NCBI GenBank assembly: GCA_002502855.1
Contig: DAQK01000046.1
Span: 20,652 to 52,651, forward strand
Length of the DNA stretch: 32,000 nt
Direction of reading: 5' to 3'
From: Methanobacterium sp. UBA279
GTDB taxonomy: Archaea > Methanobacteriota > Methanobacteria > Methanobacteriales > Methanobacteriaceae
Part shown: positions 2,050 through 21,170 of the stretch, one piece after another
Position numbering within the stretch: the stretch's first letter is position 1
Layout: every line of letters begins with the position of its first letter
Translations under genes and position numbers: made by a program
Notes under the pieces: generated by a model
What the model saw: only the letters and a program-made list of their open reading frames with translations
Database searches by the model: none
Told to the model about the DNA's origin: nothing

Positions 2050-3252
2050 TTACCCACTTTTTACTTCCAATGTATCCTTTATTTTCCTAGCCAGCCCTAT
2101 TGCCCCTTCAAAACCAAATGTGGCCTCCTGACCATGCATAACATCTACTAAAGGTATTCCCAGTTCAGTGGATAATCCGATCTCTCCCATTCCTCCAAAT
2201 ATTATGTCTGGTTTTAAATTTTCCACTTCTCGGAGTATTTCTGTGTAATCTGGCTGTTTTAAAATGATAGGATGGATTTTTCTCTCTTTAATTATCTCAT
2301 TCAATTTAGAATCGGTGTATTTTCCTTCAAAGTCCAGGCAGATGAGAACCGGTTTCATACCCAGCTCAGATAGAAACCTGGTAAGTGCGATGGCCCGGGT
2401 TGCTCCCGCCACGATCACCGCCTTTTTACCTCTTAGATAGGGCAGATATTTCTTTAACTCCTTTTCTGCCCTTTTTTCATCCTCAGCGAAGACGTAATCC
2501 CTGTCGAGTTTTTTACATATCTCCTGGAGATAATTTCCCGTGGCTTTTACACCTATTGGTAAGGTTTCGTGTAGAAATGGGATGCCAAATTTCTTCTCCA
2601 TCAGTTCACAGGGCTCTATCCCTGAAGCTTCACACATGGAGATATTCAGAGATGCTGTGGGTGCCAATTTAACTTCTTCTAACGTGCACCCGGAGGTTAA
2701 AACACAGGTAAGTTTGATGCCCAGTTTATCAAAATATTCTTTAAGGATTTTTAGATCCGGGCCTCCCCGGTATTGTCCTATGAGATTGACCGAGTTTTCT
2801 CTAACAGTTACTTCTTTTGGTGGTGGTTCCATCAAATCCACCAGGACAGTTAAACATTCTAGGTAACCTTCTATTTGGCTTCCCTCAAACCCTCCAGAAC
2901 TGATGGTTATTAATTCTGCCTTAACGTTATTTTCAGCCTCATCTATAACCTTGTCTATGTTTTCGCCTATTATACTGCTTGCACAGGAGCTTAAAACAGC
3001 GATGAGTTGTGGTGAATATTTTTCATCGGCTTCACAGATTTTCTGGAGGAGTTTATCCTCCCCTCCAAACACTATGTCGTTTTGATCCATCTCAGTGGAG
3101 AGTATTCTGATGGGTCTGCTGCTGCGCAGGCTCAGAAGATATTTTATATGATAATAACAACCGATGGGTCCGTGTATTAAGGGCAGTGCTCCTTTAATTC
3201 CCAGTACAGTCCGGATTACTCCGAATAGTTTGCAGGTTCTTAGTGATTCCAT
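2050..3252 (-). CDS. cfbD: Nitrogenase component-1-type oxidoreductase, NflD/CfbD-like (putative Ni-sirohydrochlorin a,c-diamide reductive cyclase subunit, F430 biosynthesis)
   Basis: 400 aa, shorter than NifD/K/E/N. Has the NifD/K-fold motifs LIHGPIGC and SSCASSIIGENI. There is no adjacent nifH/nifK. A methanogen context favours the Nfl/Cfb family, but this subfamily assignment is an inference. Confidence 0.6.
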   Translation of the reverse strand: MESLRTCKLFGVIRTVLGIKGALPLIHGPIGCYYHIKYLLSLRSSRPIRILSTEMDQNDIVFGGEDKLLQKICEADEKYSPQLIAVLSSCASSIIGENIDKVIDEAENNVKAELITISSGGFEGSQIEGYLECLTVLVDLMEPPPKEVTVRENSVNLIGQYRGGPDLKILKEYFDKLGIKLTCVLTSGCTLEEVKLAPTASLNISMCEASGIEPCELMEKKFGIPFLHETLPIGVKATGNYLQEICKKLDRDYVFAEDEKRAEKELKKYLPYLRGKKAVIVAGATRAIALTRFLSELGMKPVLICLDFEGKYTDSKLNEIIKERKIHPIILKQPDYTEILREVENLKPDIIFGGMGEIGLSTELGIPLVDVMHGQEATFGFEGAIGLARKIKDTLEVKSG

Positions 3253-3754: not shown

Positions 3755-5290
3755 CTATCTTCCCACAAGTATCCTGTTAATAGCGTATAATACTGCCTCT
3801 ACACTGGCTAATACAATGTCATCTGCTGCGGAACGGCCTATGGCATTGTTCCCCTTCTTATCACCCATTATCACGAAGACTTCCGCCAGTGAGTCAGGGC
3901 CTCCGGTAATTGCTTCAATATTATATTCCTTAAGCTCCATATCGGCAGTTTCACTCATGAGACTCTGTATAGCGTTTATAGCCGCATCTACTGGTCCTAC
4001 ACCAGTTTTCGCTGCGGTACTTATCTTGCCGTCTATGTTCAGTTTAACTGTGGCGGTGGGCATAACGTTGTCCCCGGTCATGACCGAGAATCCTTCCAGT
4101 TTCACTATCTCATTTTCAGCCCGGCCGAGAACCGTCTCTGCCATGGCCTTTAAATCCGCGTCGGTTACACATTTACCTTTATCTCCCAGTTTCTTTACCT
4201 GGTCGAAGATCTGGTTGAACTGTTCATCCGTGACTTCTATTCCATATTCGGTTAATTTTGATCTTATGGCGTTTGCACCGGTGTGTTTGCCCAGGACTAT
4301 TTTTCTGGTATGCCCTACCATCTCTGGGGTGATTGGTTCGTAAGTTTCTGCTTTTGCTAATACCCCGTGTACGTGTATGCCTGCTTCATGGGCAAAGGCA
4401 TTTTCACCTACGATGGCCTTGTTAGGGGGCATTTTAACCCCGGTTATCCGGGCTACCTGCTCGGAGGCATCCACCAGTAGCCGGGTGTTGATGTTCATAT
4501 CCACTCCGTAATCTATTATGAGGGCCATTACCACCTCTTCCAGCGACGCGTTTCCGGCGCGTTCTCCCAGTCCGTTTATGGTGGCGTGCACCTGTTCAGC
4601 ACCAGCTTCCACTGCACTTAATGAATTGGCCACGGCTAATCCAAAGTCATCGTGACAGTGCACGCTTAGGGGAACTTTTAGGTACCTTTTAAGCTCAGAT
4701 ATAAGATATCTCATGGAACTAGGGATCATCACCCCTACAGTATCCGGGACGTTGATGTAATCCACTTTAGCGCTTTCTACTGCCTGGTATACTTCTTTCA
4801 GATAGTCAAATTCTGTCCTGGTAGCGTCTTCGGCGGAAAATTCCGCGGTTATACCGTGATCTTTGATGTACTCCACCGCATCCACTGAGAGATTTAATAT
4901 CTCCTCTTTACTCTTTTTTAACTTATATTCCCGGTGTAACGGTGAAGTCCCAATAAATGTGTGTATATAATCTACTTCAGAATTGACAGCCGCTTCTAAA
5001 TCCTTTTCAAGGGTTCTGGCCAAACCGCAAATCTGGGTGTCCAGGTCAAGTTTCACTATCTCCCGGGCTGCTCTCCTTTCACCCTCTGAGGAAGCTGGAA
5101 ATCCCACTTCCAGGGTGTCAACTCCTAATTTATCCAGTCTTTTTGCGATTCTGATTTTCTCATCCACTGTCAGGGCCACTCCCGGGGTCTGCTCTCCATC
5201 CCTCAATGTGGTGTCGAAGATTCGAACCCTCTCCGGTAGTTTCATAGCCCCCTTTACTTCGTCTATGTACATAAAAAATCCGCCTTGCAT
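3755..5290 (-). CDS. 2-isopropylmalate synthase / (R)-citramalate synthase family enzyme (LeuA/CimA) with C-terminal regulatory domain
   Basis: Motifs [40 protein letters not shown] and [11 protein letters not shown]. The LeuA-dimer-type C-terminus is present. The LeuA versus CimA paralogue cannot be resolved by eye. The true start is probably an internal ATG (5272 or 5245). Confidence 0.85.
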
Positions 5291-13165: not shown

Positions 13166-13762
13166 ATGATATTGGGGATATGTGGCAGTCCAAGAAAACA
13201 GGCCACGGATCATGTATTAAACGAAGCATTGAAGATGCTGGAAGAGAGGGGTTTTGAAACTGAATTTTTCGGTGTGCGTGGTAAGGATATCAGTCCTTGC
13301 CTGCACTGTGATTACTGCATGCGCAAAGGAGTATGTATTCAGAAGGACGATATGTACGAAGTATACCCCCTAATGACTGAAGCCGAAGGGATAATAATGG
13401 CCACTCCCATCTACAACGGCGGATTAAGCGCTCAGCTTAAGGCGATAATGGACCGTACCCGGGCATTAGGTGCGGTTGACTACAATTTCCTGCGCAACAA
13501 AGTTGGAATGGCCATATCTGTTGGTGGAGACAGAAGCGGAGGACAGGAATTAGCTATACAGCAAATATTCACCTATTATATACTCACCGGGATGATTCCC
13601 GTTGGTGGAGGTGCCTTCGGAGCTAATCTAGGTGCGAATTTCTGGTCCCAGGATACCTTGGACGGGATTAAACAGGACGAAGAGGGATTTAGAGGTCTTC
13701 GTAAGACTGTTAAAAGATTCGGAACCTTTCTAGAAAACTTCGAGTTTAAGCAAAAGGAATAA
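13166..13762 (+). CDS. Iron-sulfur flavoprotein (Isf) / NADPH-dependent FMN reductase family
   Basis: Flavodoxin-like N-terminus ILGICGSPRK. Compact Cys motif CLHCDYCMRKGVC (Cx2Cx2Cx5C). ATPIYNGGLSAQLKAIMDR is present. SD GAGGAG. Confidence 0.75.
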   Translation: MILGICGSPRKQATDHVLNEALKMLEERGFETEFFGVRGKDISPCLHCDYCMRKGVCIQKDDMYEVYPLMTEAEGIIMATPIYNGGLSAQLKAIMDRTRALGAVDYNFLRNKVGMAISVGGDRSGGQELAIQQIFTYYILTGMIPVGGGAFGANLGANFWSQDTLDGIKQDEEGFRGLRKTVKRFGTFLENFEFKQKE

Positions 13763-13791
13763 ATCTTTTTTTAAGAAACTAAAATGAATTA

Positions 13792-13941
13792 TAACTTATA
13801 AGTTAAAAGTTCTAATTGATAAACTTTGAAGTTTTAAGTTATAAGTATTAAAGAGATTTAAAAGGGAAAAATTACAAATAAAGGAATAATCATCGGATTA
13901 AAAATCATATTAAATTTGCTTAAAAGTTATAAGTTATAAGG
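13792..13941. repeat. Cluster of AAGTTAT-heptad / AACTT-AAGTT palindromic repeats
   Basis: 14-bp perfect palindrome TAACTTATAAGTTA (13792-13805). AAGTTCTAA (13807-13815). AAGTTATAAGTA (13836-13847). Tandem AAGTTATAAGTTATAAGG (13924-13941) runs into the ferredoxin SD. Confidence 0.8.
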
Positions 13942-13949
13942 AGTTTTAG

Positions 13950-14177
13950 ATGAGGATCGAAGTTGACAAGGAGAAATGCATCGGCTGTGGAACATGCCAG
14001 GAGATCTGTCCCAAAGGTCCTCGGATCTGGAAGATTAAAGATGGGAAAGCAGAGGCAGGTAACCTACAATACTGCCATGTATGCACCCTTTGTGCATCAA
14101 AATGTCCTGTAGGAACTATACACGTAATAAGAGATGGTCAAAATGGAGAGAAAGAAAAAGTTAGCGAGAAAGACTAG
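13950..14177 (+). CDS. 2x[4Fe-4S] ferredoxin
   Basis: 75 aa with two CxxCxxCxxxCP motifs (CIGCGTCQEICP and CHVCTLCASKCP). SD AAGGAG lies 6 nt before the ATG. Confidence 0.85.
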   Translation: MRIEVDKEKCIGCGTCQEICPKGPRIWKIKDGKAEAGNLQYCHVCTLCASKCPVGTIHVIRDGQNGEKEKVSEKD

Positions 14178-15831: not shown

Positions 15832-17103
15832 CTAGCCATTTAAAGCTTGATCTCTCCTGAGATAAAGCCATGTAAATATCAGAAGAGATATTATCCCCAA
15901 CGAGTAGAAGAACCATACCATACTATCTGTAGGGCCTGTTTCAATCCAGATCAGGGTATGGGCAAGTATTATGGCATATAAACCTATAAATACGCCCCCT
16001 GCTATCTTCTGTGCACTGTGCATGAACTGGAGTACCAAACCCAGTAAAAACATCTGCACTGCCAGGCCCCATGCACCGAAATCTAGAATAGCCGGCCCGA
16101 ACAGGGTGGAAGTTATACTGGTGGTGATGCCGCTTCCTGGTTGATAAAAAGAAGGTAAAACCACATATCCCACAGTAACCCTAGGATGTCCTCCAGTAAG
16201 CGCCTGATAAAAGAGTTCCCCACCAGTAAATCCAGGCATGTGTACGATTTTATCCAGGACCATCATGGTGAAACCCGCCCGGTAAAATATCAGTTCCAGC
16301 GGATTTAAAACCCAGGTCTGCCACTGGATAGCATTCACTGCAATATAACCCAGGGCGATGCCTATTATTGCCATTAATATTATTAAAAGGAAGACATATT
16401 TCGCTTTTAATCGCATGGTATAATAGGTGGTGATTATTACGCTTAATATGATGGCCATAGATGATGTACGGTAGCCATTTACTGCAAACAGGACTAATCC
16501 AACAACAAATAAGATGTAATACCATTTACGGGGATATTTCGCGAGTAACAGGTTTAAGACTGGGAGGAAGATGACGTAAGCAATCCTCCACAGATCCGTT
16601 GTGGCTTGAAATTTAAGGTAACCACTGAGTAATGGGATACCGCCGAGTAAGACCAGGTTTGCACCCTGTAAGATAATAGCAAGGATAACTAAAGAAAAAA
16701 GGACCCTCTCATCCACCAGAAGTTTTATTTTAGAGTACCAGGTGGCTTTCTCCTTGGCACTGTTTATCTTTAGGGTGAATTTCTTAAAGTTGCCTATAAT
16801 TCTAGGGAAGTACAATCCCAGTATGAAAATTACCACTCCAAAGATTATATAATAATAGGTGATGGAATCAGCCCAATCCAGGTTTCGGATATGGTAATAA
16901 TAGCCCAAAGCAGCCAGAAAAACGTAGATTATTATAAATACTACTACGATGTAGGGGGAGAAGATATCCACTTCGTTGAGTTTCTTATTCAACTTTTCAG
17001 AGAATGTCAAATTTATCTGGTCTCCTAAAAATTTTTCAGTCTCTAAATTTTTCCTTAAAATAGGTTCACAGTTCTCCTGCACTGGTGGTGAAATTCGAAG
17101 CAA
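15832..17103 (-). CDS. Polytopic membrane protein, oligosaccharide repeat-unit polymerase (Wzy)-like
   Basis: 423 aa with about 10-12 hydrophobic helices. The function is guessed from topology and size only. There is no in-frame ATG in the first ~214 codons. The track start is TTG at 17103. Alternatives are GTG 17082 and TTG 17010. Confidence 0.45.
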
Positions 17104-18415
17104 ATGAAGGATAGGCGGCGGTATGGGTGTGAATGTAGCTTGCCACGGTATTTTTAGACATCATACCATCCTGTTGGTTGATGATACCACTTCCTCTTAA
17201 GATTTTAAAGGCAAATTCGGGGTTTCCATCAGCTATTTCAACTTTTGAGTAGTGGAACTCATGCCCCTTGATGATATCGTCTTTATCTGCGATTATACTC
17301 TTCTGTTTAGCTTTAGAGACAACGTAACTTAAAGCCTGTGGCTTTTTGGTCATGACCGAGTCGTAACCAAATATGTTACACATTTTGTGATGATTTATGG
17401 AGCGGCAGACGTACATGAGTCCACCGCATTCAGCATAGATTGGCCTTCCTTCCCTGTGGAATTTTAAAATAGAATCCCGCATGGACTGGTTACCCTCCAG
17501 TTCATGGGCGAATATTTCCGGATATCCTCCACCGATATAAACCCCATCCACGTCCGGTAATTCTTCATCATGGAGGGGGCTGAAGTAAACCAGTTCTGCC
17601 TGGTTTTCTTCAAGGGCATCTAAATTATCACGGTAATAGAAGGTGAAAACTTCATCCATGGCCACGCCCAGTTTAACCTTCTGCCCGTTCTGGGTCTCCC
17701 ACAGGCTTTCCCTTCCCGGGGGAAGCTTATTTACGTCTTTCATCAGGGAGATAAGGTTGTCCAGGTCTATGTAATCCTTTACCATCTCAACCCATTTATT
17801 GATGGATCCTAAAATGTTTTTCCTTTCCACGGCAGGTACCAGGCCCAAGTGTCTGTCTTCCACTCTAATGGCACCACTGCGGGGTATACCTCCTACTACT
17901 TTAGTTTTGGCCAGTGTTTCCACTGCTTCCTTGGTTTTCAGGTAGTGTTTGCGGTTTTTAACCTGATTTAGAATAACTCCTTGGATATTGATGGTGGGAT
18001 CCAGTGCTTTAAATCCCAGTACAACAGCGGCAGCGCTTTTCACTAGGCTTCGAGAATTTAAAATTAATACCACGGGGGCGTCCAGTGCCCTGGCAATGGA
18101 TGCGGTGTTACCCACATCGCCTGTAGCACTGATACCCTCATATAAGCCTCTTACACCCTCAATTATCCCAAAATCAGCATCGGAAATCTTCATGCCTCTT
18201 TCAAATCCCTGCCTGATCTGTCCGTCGGTCATGAAAAAGGAGTCCAGGTTACGGGAATAGTTGCCGGTGGCCAGGGTGTGATAGGTGGGATCTATATAAT
18301 CCGGGCCGACTTTAAAGGGTTGGACGGTGTATTCGTCGGATAATGCTTTCATTATCCCTGTAGCGATGGTTGTTTTTCCTACAGCGCTTCCTGTTCCTGC
18401 AAGGACTAATCTCAT
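17066..18415 (-). CDS. Cobyrinate / Ni-sirohydrochlorin a,c-diamide synthase (CbiA/CfbB family, glutamine amidotransferase)
   Basis: P-loop [13 protein letters not shown]-terminal GATase motif YAECGGLMY. 449 aa. Methanogens carry both CbiA and CfbB paralogues, which cannot be separated by eye. Confidence 0.85.
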
Positions 18416-19694: not shown

Positions 19695-19743
19695 TTTTTA
19701 GATGTTATTTTAGGTATTAATCTACTGTTATATGTGATAAGAG

Positions 19744-19794
19744 ATAAGTTATAAGTTTTAACAGGTACACTTATAACTAATAAGTTCTAACTTA
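19744..19794. repeat. AAGTTAT-heptad repeat cluster downstream of the parA cassette
   Basis: ATAAGTTATAAGTT (19744-19757). Its perfect 10-bp inverted copy ACTTATAACT (19769-19778). TAAGTTCTAACTTA (19781-19794). Positions 19768-19790 match 13793-15 at 19/23. Confidence 0.8.
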
Positions 19795-20217
19795 CAACCC
19801 CTTTTCCTCGAATATTTTCCAGATATCCGGATGCCTATCCTTCACAGCTTCCTCAATGAGGAGTGATGCCTCATTGCTTATGCTGAACTCAGGTTTTGTT
19901 TTCTTTAAAAACCTTAAAACTGCAGCTGATTTAGCAGACCATAATGATATCCGTGGATTCTTATGCACTTCCAAAAGTACCGCATCGACGATCTTATCAT
20001 CTACGCTGGGAGTTGATGATTCCTGTATTTGTGTGCTAACATCAGTTTCAGCAGTTTCTGCTTTTTTATCTTTTGAGATTTTTGCAGAACCAGTGCTTTT
20101 TGCCTGTTTTTTCCCTGATTTTTTTGGTCTTTCCTCTTCCTCATCTAGGTAATCCTTCCTTATAAGGGCGTCTAATCCTTTACCAAGGGCATTTTCCGGC
20201 CTTTTTCTGGGTGTCAT
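19792..20217 (-). CDS. ParA partner protein: ParB-like N-terminal peptide, charged linker and small C-terminal helical domain (SegB-like / mini-ParB)
   Basis: The N-terminus MTPRKRPENALGKGLDALI resembles the bacterial ParB/Spo0J N-terminus (basic-GLGRGLDALL). A K/E/S-rich linker follows. The C-terminal ~65 aa look helical. The ATG overlaps the parA stop (ATGA at 20214-20217). Confidence 0.6.
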   Translation of the reverse strand: MTPRKRPENALGKGLDALIRKDYLDEEEERPKKSGKKQAKSTGSAKISKDKKAETAETDVSTQIQESSTPSVDDKIVDAVLLEVHKNPRISLWSAKSAAVLRFLKKTKPEFSISNEASLLIEEAVKDRHPDIWKIFEEKGL

Positions 20218-20999
20218 TTGTTGTCACCCTCACCTTCCATTTGAATGATCTCCTTAGCCAGTTTCTGGTAGGCCTCTGTACCGCTGCATTTTTCATCATA
20301 CAGGATACAGGGGATTCCATGGCTGGGTGCTTCCGCTAACTTAACATTACGGGGAATGGTGGTTTTGAAGATGTGCTCAGTCTCTCCAAAGTACTGTTTC
20401 ACGTTGTTGTAAACATCCCTGCCCAGACGGGTCCTGGAATCATATAAAGTTAAAAGAATTCCCTTGATGGGTGAAGGGCTGTTCAACCTGGTTTTTACCA
20501 GATCCATGGCCTGGATTAAATCAGCCATCCCCTCTAATGCATAAAACTCCGCTTGTATTGGTATGATAACGCTGTTAGAAGCTACAATGGAATTTAAAGT
20601 CAACAATCCAAGGGAGGGTGGGACATCTATGAAAATGTAATCGTAGTTATCAACATATCCATCAACAGCTTCTTTTAAAATTGAATGGGGGCCTATAGTT
20701 TTACTTAATTCCAGTTCTGCCCCGCTTAAGTCGATGTTACTAGGTAACAGATCCAGTTGAGGTATGCTGGTTTGTATTATGGACTCTTCTACGGTGCTTT
20801 GCCCAGATAGAACTGAATAGATAGTATTTATTTGGTTATTTTTCTCCATTCCCAACCCCGTTGTGGCGTTACCCTGGGGATCCATATCTATTACCAGAAC
20901 ATTTCTATCTGAAAGGGCCAGTGCTGCTGCAAGGTTTACTGCAGTGGTAGTTTTCCCACATCCTCCCTTCTGGTTTAATATAGCTATAATCTCGCTCAT
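20214..20999 (-). CDS. parA: Soj/ParA-type partition ATPase (SegA-like)
   Basis: Deviant Walker A ILNQKGGCGKTTTAVNLAAALA. Motifs VIDMDPQGNAT, FIDVPPSLGLLTLN and IPRNVKLAEAPSHG. The preferred start is ATG at 20999 (MSEII), preceded by GGGAGG. The track start 21017 adds 6 aa. Confidence 0.9.
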   Translation of the reverse strand: MSEIIAILNQKGGCGKTTTAVNLAAALALSDRNVLVIDMDPQGNATTGLGMEKNNQINTIYSVLSGQSTVEESIIQTSIPQLDLLPSNIDLSGAELELSKTIGPHSILKEAVDGYVDNYDYIFIDVPPSLGLLTLNSIVASNSVIIPIQAEFYALEGMADLIQAMDLVKTRLNSPSPIKGILLTLYDSRTRLGRDVYNNVKQYFGETEHIFKTTIPRNVKLAEAPSHGIPCILYDEKCSGTEAYQKLAKEIIQMEGEGDNK

Positions 21000-21022
21000 A
21001 AAACAATCCTCCCACATTTAGT

Positions 21023-21056
21023 GATAACTTCTAAATGATAAGTTATAAGTTATAAT
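21023..21056. repeat. AAGTTAT-heptad repeat cluster in the parA promoter region
   Basis: GATAACTT (21023-21030) is inverted relative to ATAAGTTATAAGTTATAA (21038-21055). The cluster lies 40-57 nt upstream of the parA ATG and overlaps the only TATA-like sequence. Confidence 0.8.
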
Positions 21057-21170
21057 ATAAATATTTATCGTTGAATAGGGGTTTATTTAAGCTGATTTTG
21101 TAGAAAATTAGGAGTAATTAAAAAGGAATATTTTAGAGAAATTTTAATGAAAAAAATAAAAAACTTATCC

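Follow-up and report, generated by a model that had tools for sequence, protein, structure and literature searches.

How is the chromosome of a methanogen segregated, when nearly all that is understood of this process in archaea stems from SegAB of Sulfolobus, which behaves unlike bacterial ParABS? The question is raised by two overlapping open reading frames (ORFs) on the minus strand of a 32,000-nucleotide stretch of Methanobacterium sp. UBA279 (GenBank assembly GCA_002502855.1, contig DAQK01000046.1, positions 20,652 to 52,651; hereafter called the window), which encode a ParA-like ATPase (20214..21017) and a partner protein of 141 aa (19792..20217). An initial annotation had read this pair as a Soj-type ParA coupled to a 'mini-ParB', keeping only the ParA-activating peptide of ParB. 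We find instead that the partner is, by homology, a SegB protein, that its N-terminal tail carries a ParB-type motif together with a matching pocket on the ATPase, and that arrays of a 7-bp repeat flank the two genes.

A Soj-type ParA paired with a SegB orthologue

The ATPase matched AAA_31 (E = 1.8e-63) and also CbiA in Pfam, over its full length, and has the deviant Walker A motif KGGCGKTT in a chain of 261 aa, in agreement with what characterizes chromosomal ParA/Soj proteins (KGGxGKT, about 250–260 aa, no N-terminal helix-turn-helix (HTH) domain). Its best relatives in the PDB were Myxococcus xanthus ParA (8RAY, E = 3e-70, 240 bits), Helicobacter pylori Soj (6IUB, 4.5e-62, 213 bits) and Thermus thermophilus Soj (1WCV, 2.7e-56, 194 bits), while archaeal MinD scored 73 bits and SegA of Sulfolobus solfataricus (Sso; 7DUT, 4.9e-16), ranked under MinD, scored 62 bits. 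A four-way alignment gave identities of 47.4% to M. xanthus ParA and 47.6% to H. pylori Soj, these two being 45.8% identical to each other, and of 31.5% to Sso SegA, with internal gaps in SegA; the window protein hence falls outside the Sulfolobus-type SegA class of about 220 aa. Judged by these relationships it is a bona fide bacterial-type (Soj-like) ParA, as near to the bacterial ParAs as those are among themselves. The residue matching the DNA-binding R238 of M. xanthus ParA is a Lys (IPRNVKLAE).

The true start of ParA is probably the ATG at 20999 (MSEII...), giving the 261 aa, because a GGAGG lies 8 nt upstream of it and because homologues have their KGGxGKT at about residue 10. These homologues begin with M-[SAGT]-E-[IK]-I, and the six-codon extension up to 21017 (MWEDCF) is probably untranslated. 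As the plus strand reads tcat at 20214-20217, the TGA stop of parA and the ATG of the partner gene overlap as ATGA. Of the 76 related loci with a recovered SegB ORF, sampled at one genome per species, most had an identical 4-nt overlap, and segB lies downstream of and overlaps parA also in loci L082, L084 and L085. An AGGTGA-like sequence can be read about 13 nt 5' of the segB ATG, and the two genes are presumably translationally coupled via the overlap.

For the partner protein no significant match was found in Pfam or NCBIfam, with no signal for ParBc/Srx (PF02195) or a ParB HTH up to E = 10, and a ParB HTH or ParB C-terminal dimerization domain was found neither in these searches nor when a profile was run against the PDB. 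The GxxRxxA and ENLQRE boxes of the ParB CTPase were likewise not found in it, its linker being of low complexity and unconserved. A sub-threshold Pfam match to Pox_VLTF3, at 17 bits, was dismissed. There were 945 homologues at E<=0.01, and those listed were 108–178 aa long and had no Pfam domains. When a profile of 27 homologues was compared with the PDB, SegB was found with E = 7.1e-12 (7DUV) and E = 1.2e-8 (7DV2) across the C-terminal 65–90 residues, and hhalign against 21 Sulfolobales SegB sequences gave 97.5% probability and E = 5.5e-12 over 68 columns, with the C-terminal domain alone being aligned and the N-termini not. Residues 86-94 (KNPRISLWS), invariant in the 27 homologues, fit the SegB signature K/R-D/N-P-K/R-I-G/T-V/L-W-S (PMC12139799) save for a Ser in place of G/T at one position. 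On this profile evidence the partner is a true SegB orthologue and not a ParB, so that 'mini-ParB' is a nickname and no family assignment, and its C-terminal homology to Sulfolobus SegB places the cassette in the euryarchaeal SegAB family. The joint assignment of a Soj-type ParA together with a SegB orthologue we regard as close to certain.

The alignment of the 27 homologues displayed three parts, with residues 10-20 invariant save for a Lys or Arg at position 13, residues from about 21 to 73 hypervariable, and residues 80-136 highly conserved. In the AlphaFold monomer, the predicted local distance difference test (pLDDT) score was below 50 over residues 26-68. The C-terminal domain was modeled, at pLDDT 74–86, as a helix (residues 74-86), a non-helical NPRIS segment (87-91) and three further helices, which is the alpha1-beta1-alpha2-alpha3-alpha4 order of SegB (PMC8682754); the beta-ribbon of SegB forms only in the dimer, whereas the model is a monomer. 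Among the three residues by which Sso SegB contacts bases (PMC8682754), W56 is kept (W93) while K52 is replaced by R89 and K75 by S112, which fits a DNA specificity other than that of Sso SegB.

Several points of the initial annotation consequently stood, namely the Soj-type ATPase, at 47% identity to its M. xanthus and H. pylori counterparts, the ATGA overlap, the lack of a ParB/Srx box and HTH, and the Lys/Glu/Ser-rich linker followed by a C-terminal domain of about 65 aa. Its remark that the architecture recalls SegA/SegB was right with regard to kinship and understated it. It had also named a degraded full-length ParB, or a characterized SegB orthologue with no trace of the ParB-like peptide, as what would speak against its proposal, and neither was seen, the C-terminus being that of a SegB and the tail carrying the ParB-type motif.

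As a separate observation, NCBI labels the SegB-like proteins P0035, P0040, P0044, P0077 and P0118, of 134–144 aa, as 'AAA family ATPase' although an ATPase domain is absent from them; the name seems to have been transferred by mistake from the neighboring parA.

A ParB-type motif at the N-terminus of SegB

Residues 10-19 of the window SegB, ALGKGLDALI, follow the pattern of the ParB-family N-terminus, in which a basic run is succeeded by L-G-K/R-G-L-x-A-L-hydrophobic. T. thermophilus Spo0J begins MSRKPSGLGRGLEALLP and reads SGLGRGLEALLP, with GLGRGLEALL at residues 7-16 (sequence of PDB 1VZ0), and H. pylori ParB has MAKNKVLGRG as its first residues, Leu7 and Arg9 being conserved (PMC11229316). 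Binding of ParA by M. xanthus ParB requires L11, L15, L18 and I19, and stimulation of the ParA ATPase requires R13, a Lys being tolerated at this position and present in about 50% of ParBs, and the peptide of residues 1-20 alone stimulates ParA (PMC12462528). The corresponding L11, K13, L15, L18 and I19 of the window SegB even share residue numbers with these essential residues.

Among the 27 homologues, reaching down to 51% identity, A10, L11, G12, G14, L15, D16, A17, L18, I19 and R20 were invariant and position 13 was Lys or Arg, and nearly all full-length proteins among the 76 SegB ORFs of Methanobacteriaceae, including Methanosphaera, had ALG[KR]GLDALI at about residues 5-20. A profile search of 1.84 billion cluster representatives gave 256 clusters at E<=0.001. 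Within the best 150 of these, 66 carried LG[KR]G[LIVM]x[ASVG]hh in their first 45 residues and 16 a relaxed form (together 82/150), with Lys and Arg at the central residue in a ratio of 33:33 among the representatives. The remainder of the best 150 without the motif included many fragments or mis-started metagenomic ORFs, and one sub-group of different architecture. Named members of the SegB-like family include Methanobrevibacter and Archaeoglobaceae. In all DNA examined, corresponding to 1.37 million six-frame residues, the strict motif pattern occurred 80 times with 0.19 expected, so that it is not a chance finding, and all 80 occurrences were at the N-terminus of a SegB-like ORF. When a profile of the N-terminal 34 residues was compared with the PDB no ParB was found, only a protochlorophyllide reductase subunit by chance; this motif is too short for the HMMER filters and many ParB constructs come without the N-terminus.

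Judging from these counts, the ParB-type motif is the norm in the euryarchaeal branch of SegB. The resemblance to the ParA-binding peptide of ParB that had been noted from the single sequence was hence borne out against T. thermophilus Spo0J and the essential M. xanthus residues, and so was its conservation among orthologues; the layout is not special to this methanogen. That a ParB peptide is 'grafted' onto a non-ParB body holds inasmuch as the motif is of ParB type and the body is that of SegB, but the word is not to be taken as giving a direction of evolution.

Other layouts were also seen in the family. The proteins P0132, P0150, P0145 and that encoded at 2501-3208 of locus L084 (235–332 aa) have two tandem SegB-like domains behind one N-terminal ParB-type or ParB-like motif, which in P0132 is only a degenerate copy (ALGDKAEDLF), and they could be single-chain pseudo-dimers. 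A sub-group of 156–214 aa (P0207, P0212, P0217, P0222, P0235, P0238, P0240, P0243, P0244 and P0266) begins directly with the SegB-like domain (…KITLYS…ILRYxxLTIPxF), lacks a ParB-type tail and is extended at its C-terminus. The tail of P0216, P0219, P0234 and P0247, M..KxPIPxSRhxGhFSKKKK, has a hydrophobic patch and then a run of Lys, recalling the Sulfolobales MSELDFLLKKK layout more than the ParB motif.

A putative ParB-peptide pocket on ParA

By mutagenesis and nuclear magnetic resonance of M. xanthus ParA, the ParB peptide has been placed at V116, L150, L152, L155, L187 and L192, and its R13 at Y81, E82, D110 and E117 (PMC12462528). With the M. xanthus numbering anchored by the D60A substitution in the 8RAY chain, the window ParA was found to have, in sequence order, Y, S, D, L, E, L, L, L, L and L at these ten positions. 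Eight are therefore identical (Y81, D110, E117, L150, L152, L155, L187 and L192), V116 is conservatively changed to Leu and E82 is replaced by Ser. In 72 Methanobacteriaceae ParAs, Y81, E117, L150, L187 and L192 were invariant, while V116, L152 and L155 were always aliphatic. The pocket was also kept in the ParAs encoded beside motif-bearing SegB-like proteins in Archaeoglobaceae, in Methanobrevibacter and on two unclassified archaeal contigs, these ParAs being 45–49% identical to that of M. xanthus.

Sulfolobus differs on both sides of this putative contact. In Sso SegA, Y81, D110 and L152 are absent and an alignment gap covers the region of L187-L192, with the residues aligned at E117 and L192 differing between the two alignments made. 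All Sulfolobales SegB proteins start M-S-E-L-D-[FL]-[LI]-[LIF]-x-[KR]-[KR]-K (Sso SegB being MSELDFLLKKKRK), a pattern that the window SegB tail, ALGKGLDALIRK, does not follow. Comparing MSELDFLLKKK with ALGKGLDALIRK by eye, the second half alone is loosely alike (GLDALIRK versus ELDFLLKK), and the Sulfolobales tail is without the L-G-K/R-G half. These contrasts in tail and pocket suggest that the type of tail co-varies with the type of ATPase, in a sample that outside Methanobacteriaceae is small, comprising four loci plus Sso.

Heptad arrays as candidate SegB sites

A search of the window for TAAGTTATAAGTT at <=2 mismatches gave 20 matches, compared to 1.7 expected, of which 19 fell in three clusters just 5' of parA (21032-21058), just past segB (19738-19794) and at 13786-13942. 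The repeat unit is the 7-bp AAGTTAT/ATAACTT, in both direct and inverted orientation. No 150-nt interval of the 32 kb is richer in the repeat than that of the cluster past segB, with 9 copies at <=1 mismatch against a mean of 0.8. The distal cluster, with exact heptads at 13791, 13836, 13924 and 13931, is intergenic; it is flanked by an ORF resembling FMN reductases (13166-13762) and by the start, at 13951, of a small ferredoxin-like ORF, and could provide a further SegB site. The Sulfolobus motif TCTAGA-S-TCTAGA was also considered as the site, and was dropped since the repeat search gave none near the operon, AAGTTAT being the enriched element.

The heptads were conserved together with the operon. 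In 71 other loci, the 130 nt upstream of parA had 17.75 exact heptads per kb and the 170 nt after segB had 13.7, which against a background of 0.445 per kb elsewhere corresponds to about 40-fold and 30-fold enrichment, respectively, with >=2 heptads in 63/71 and 50/71 of the loci. The upstream windows held 160 heptads, as against 6.5 in composition-matched shuffles. When related loci were aligned by eye, a block ATAACTTATAACTT was seen 25–40 nt ahead of the start codon, immediately after a conserved TATA-like block AAATATTTATATT. In locus L036, directly after segB (4492-4677), a 22-bp unit CTGGATCACTTATAACTTATAA containing the heptad is found in 5 tandem copies at 95% match within a wider array at 4492-4655, which resembles an iteron-like centromere. 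ATAACTT heptads were also present upstream of parA in the Archaeoglobaceae locus L082 (1-5327, from a metagenome-assembled genome), and in the divergent locus L085 (1540-1760) a different heptad, TAATTAC, occurs in several tandem copies immediately before the parA start, which suggests that the layout of heptad arrays is general, with a sequence that co-varies with the SegB beta-strand. From their position and conservation, and by analogy with known systems, we consider it reasonably likely that the heptads are the binding site of SegB.

With regard to the setting of L082, its parA (249 aa) and SegB-like gene (108 aa, MKRLGRGLDAII..., with RNPRITLWS) lie between two cdc6/orc1 genes and hence probably beside a replication origin, and a PIN/RHH (ribbon-helix-helix) toxin-antitoxin pair is found just downstream of them.

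Relation to known segregation systems

Orthologues of SegB in Euryarchaeota, including Methanobacteriales, have been published as always located downstream of, and overlapping with, a segA-like gene, and SegB has been said to share no sequence identity with proteins of bacteria or to be without evolutionary relation to ParB (PMC5120986, PMC12284271, PMC12139799). The euryarchaeal partners have been termed 'SegA orthologues' about 40 aa longer (PMC12284271), and the N-terminal regions of euryarchaeal SegB have been characterized as poorly conserved, lineage-specific and of unknown function, with horizontal transfer of euryarchaeal SegB from Sulfolobaceae being proposed (PMC12139799). Judged by homology and gene order, the present cassette is a member of this published euryarchaeal SegAB group, differing in both interacting modules from SegAB of Sulfolobus, the only one characterized. 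A link between SegB and ParB's ParA-binding motif does not appear in PMC5120986, PMC12139799 and PMC12284271; the 2012 PNAS paper on SegAB, whose alignment figure may show euryarchaeal N-termini, lies outside this comparison. Within the SegAB literature examined we did not find recognition of the ParB-type tail, the matching pocket on a Soj-type partner, the contrast to Sulfolobus in these respects, or the heptad arrays.

With SegAB of Sulfolobus/Saccharolobus (7DUT, 7DUV, 7DV2) the cassette shares the homologous C-terminal domain with its signature K-N/D-P-K/R-I-x-L/V-W-S, a position directly downstream of and overlapping a ParA-family gene, and a disordered N-terminal tail followed by a variable linker. 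The first 21 residues of Sso SegB are needed for an approximately 1000-fold stimulation of the SegA ATPase (PMC8682754). Its site 1 adjoins the segA start, the TCTAGA-S-TCTAGA sequence being two hexamers in a 7-bp register (PMC12284271), and the candidate sites found here similarly abut the start codon of the ATPase in a 7-bp register. The systems differ in the tail (ALGKGLDALI here, MSELDFLLKKK there), in the ATPase (a 261-aa Soj-type ParA with a ParB pocket here, a 220-aa SegA with an atypical non-sandwich dimer there) and in the DNA element (candidate AAGTTAT heptads here, TCTAGA-S-TCTAGA there, together with different base-contacting residues), and no segC was seen here. A Sulfolobus-type TCTAGA-S-TCTAGA site is visible in locus L081.

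What is shared with bacterial ParABS (8RAY, 6IUB and 1WCV for the ATPase, 1VZ0 for ParB) is the ATPase, at about 47% identity, its pocket, the motif residues at the partner N-terminus and, presumably, the logic by which a centromere-bound activator stimulates a nucleoid-bound ATPase. In contrast to ParB, the partner is without the ParB/Srx CTPase, the HTH and the ParB C-terminal dimerization domain; as the CTPase domain is lacking, a CTP-gated clamp or sliding would not be expected, and DNA would be recognized by an RHH beta-ribbon on iterated heptads, where ParB uses an HTH and a 16-bp parS. In type Ib systems (ParF/ParG of TP228 and delta/omega of pSM19035), a ParA-family ATPase is activated by a small RHH dimer whose N-terminal tail is flexible and which binds arrays of short direct and inverted repeats, omega binding 7-bp heptads, with operator and centromere sites being shared. 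They differ in that the cassette studied here has an activation motif of the chromosomal ParB type and a chromosomal Soj-type ATPase, not ParF or delta. This likeness to ParG and omega is general knowledge together with statements in PMC8682754 and PMC9499535, and the PDB search with the 27-homologue profile gave no ParG or omega match that would indicate sequence kinship. AspA-ParB-ParA of pNOB8, finally, is also archaeal and also joins a ParB-derived ParA-interacting module to an archaea-specific DNA binder, but uses three proteins, with AspA on the DNA and a real ParB N-domain as adaptor (PMC8682754), where the present system has one polypeptide of 141 aa with a short motif and the DNA-binding domain.

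A tentative reading of these comparisons, which we hold to be possible rather than probable, is that the motif is a portable module common to bacterial ParB and archaeal SegB, co-varying with the type of ATPase, and that Sulfolobus SegAB, having a truncated tail and an atypical SegA, is a derived form. Should this be true, most euryarchaeal 'SegAB' systems would be Soj systems using an RHH adaptor with a ParB activation peptide, hence hybrids of a chromosomal ATPase and a type-Ib-style binder. The statements that no sequence link joins SegB to proteins of bacteria would then no longer stand, and the transfer of euryarchaeal SegB from Sulfolobaceae (PMC12139799) would come into question, with bearing on how the SegB family has evolved.

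Proposed mechanism and alternatives

What the data show are the arrangement of the genes, their homologies, the conserved motif and pocket, and the placement and conservation of the repeats; from these we infer a model in which SegB would bind the heptads, touch ParA by its peptide, stimulate the ATPase, regulate its own operon and serve in segregation. Dimers of SegB would load via their C-terminal RHH domain on the AAGTTAT arrays located between the TATA box and the parA start, just 3' of segB and about 6 kb away, thereby forming a partition complex, and the promoter-proximal site, because of its position, would also serve to repress the operon. Disordered linkers of about 50 residues would display many ParB-type tails from this complex. 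Each tail would form a short amphipathic helix (L11, L15, L18 and I19) within the hydrophobic pocket at the dimer interface of ATP-bound, nucleoid-bound ParA, where K13 of SegB would contact the Tyr/Glu site (Y67 and E103, counted along the ORF), and the docking would stimulate ATP hydrolysis cooperatively with DNA, as bacterial ParB peptides do (PMC12462528). ParA would thereby be freed from DNA, and the resulting ParA gradient would move the SegB-bound chromosome region by a diffusion-ratchet or DNA-relay. Since there is no CTPase clamp, avidity would have to come from RHH dimers on iterated sites, as it does from dimers and iterated sites in the type Ib proteins ParG and omega (also summarized in PMC8682754).

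As a whole we consider this picture, of a euryarchaeal SegAB-type chromosomal partition cassette in which heptad-bound SegB fires ParA via ParB-type tails, to be probable. If the pairing of a canonical ParA with a ParB-peptide SegB is true, the peptide and its pocket would be a core of ParA systems conserved across domains whatever the DNA-binding body, a protein of 141 aa that lacks a CTP clamp would suffice for a Soj-type ATPase and could provide a minimal model for what the ParB CTPase adds, and the conserved heptad arrays would be the first candidate centromere sequence for methanogens.

Some findings weigh against this picture. The AlphaFold monomer of the partner is of modest quality, with a mean pLDDT of 63.6, and Foldseek with this model ranked SegB 7DUV first at a non-significant E = 0.31, as is to be expected when an intertwined dimer is modeled as a single chain, and this ranking is no evidence on its own. 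Within the pocket, E82 and D110 vary among the 72 Methanobacteriaceae ParAs, although both are described as functionally conserved in bacterial ParA. The position of the ParB peptide on ParA differs somewhat between two structural models (PMC12462528 versus PMC11229316), so that conservation of the pocket is to be read mainly against the M. xanthus mapping. Sulfolobus SegAB moreover seems to work unlike ParABS, with a bipolar SegA structure (PMC12139799), and a ratchet mechanism can hence not be assumed for every system containing SegB. The heptads overlapping the promoter could, finally, belong to the promoter itself or serve a different regulator as its site.

The position of the best-conserved heptads between the TATA-like box and the start codon, which is the classic one for a repressor, also agrees with the small protein being chiefly an RHH-type autorepressor or local regulator, with the heptads as its operator, ParA serving another positioning task and no segregation machine being present; RHH proteins are often repressors, and a regulatory role of sites upstream of segA has been left possible (PMC5120986). 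We consider this unlikely, as the further arrays, those downstream of the operon as well as those about 6 kb off, make up, together with the 22-bp iterons of L036, a pattern typical of centromeres, as a plain repressor needs neither a conserved ParA-activation motif nor a strictly coupled Soj-type ParA, and as autoregulation and centromere function coexist in type Ib systems such as those of ParG and omega. Slightly less probable still, in our view, is that the ParB resemblance of the SegB N-terminus is convergent or reflects another role, such as DNA contact or oligomerization, with ParA not being engaged in the manner of ParB. The motif comprises only about 10 residues, the euryarchaeal and Sulfolobales SegB N-termini were left unaligned by hhalign, and the archaeal ParAs vary at E82 and D110, all of which would suit convergence, but all five essential M. 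xanthus ParB residues are matched with the same order and spacing, the central Lys/Arg ratio is as in bacteria, the motif is found as in ParB at the extreme N-terminus behind a basic run, and the receptor residues are conserved on the partner ATPase. Had convergence led to the same pocket, the mechanism would still be the same.

Cassettes with a ParA and a small centromere-binding protein are typical of plasmids, whose centromeres the heptad iterons resemble, and the genes could on those grounds stem from an integrated plasmid or virus rather than being the segregation apparatus of the chromosome itself. The flanks are nonetheless of a housekeeping nature (thrS, ilvD, argS, mtd and fae-hps, with a gene for a pseudomurein-binding-repeat protein also among the neighbors), no integrase or other mobile-element gene was found among the 20 large window ORFs scanned against Pfam, and the order thrS > parA > segB < radical-SAM/HhH is maintained in about 70 related Methanobacteriaceae genomes. 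We rejected the integrated element upon this conserved synteny, deeming it very improbable; as judged from the conserved gene order, the cassette is chromosomal and vertically inherited. The sole support for a degraded, truncated bacterial-type ParB that has kept its N-terminus alone is the motif itself. This explanation was refuted by the profile searches, with no ParBc/Srx or HTH signal and with a C-terminal domain significantly homologous to SegB, in a protein that is intact, highly conserved and syntenic in about 80 species, and we give it virtually no weight compared to the partition cassette proposed above.

Genomic setting and coordinates

The genomes closest to the window were Methanobacterium or Methanobacteriaceae metagenome-assembled genomes. 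The features of the cassette and its surroundings, as positioned in the window, are compiled in Table 1.

Table 1. Positions of the parA-segB features and heptad sites in the window
Feature	Position	Strand	Basis
parA, Soj-type deviant Walker A ATPase, 261 aa	20214..20999 (ORF open to 21017)	-	AAA_31, PDB matches
segB-like gene, 141 aa, predicted centromere-binding protein with ParB-type N-terminal tail	19792..20217	-	SegB profile match
ATGA overlap, parA stop/segB start	20214..20217	-	plus-strand tcat
ALGKGLDALIR, residues 10-20, ParB-type ParA-binding motif (by sequence match)	20158..20190	-	invariant, n=27 homologues
Linker codons, residues 21-73, Lys/Glu/Ser-rich, disordered, length-variable	19999..20157	-	no conserved column, many indels
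C-terminal domain segment	19795..19998	-	aligns to SegB residues 33-101
TATA-box-like TTTATATT, inferred parA-segB promoter	21054..21061	-	read from sequence
Proximal heptad site, candidate SegB operator/centromere	21024..21053	.	ATAACTT 21024-21030, AAGTTAT x2 21040-21053; between TATA-like box and parA start
Downstream heptad array, direct and inverted AAGTTAT-like copies	19738..19794	.	just after and overlapping segB stop
Distal intergenic heptad cluster, candidate additional site about 6 kb from segB	13786..13942	.	9/20 TAAGTTATAAGTT-like matches

On the metagenomic contig of locus L083 (1643-2169), an intact SegB-like gene is preceded by a parA broken into ORFs of 95 aa and 77 aa, this split parA being either a pseudogene or an assembly error. 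Elsewhere in the window, positions 2050-3252 encode a nitrogenase-component-1-like oxidoreductase and positions 17066-18415 a CobB/CobQ-type amidotransferase (CbiA + GATase_3), which look like CfbD-like and CfbB-like genes of coenzyme F430 biosynthesis, ordinary for a methanogen.

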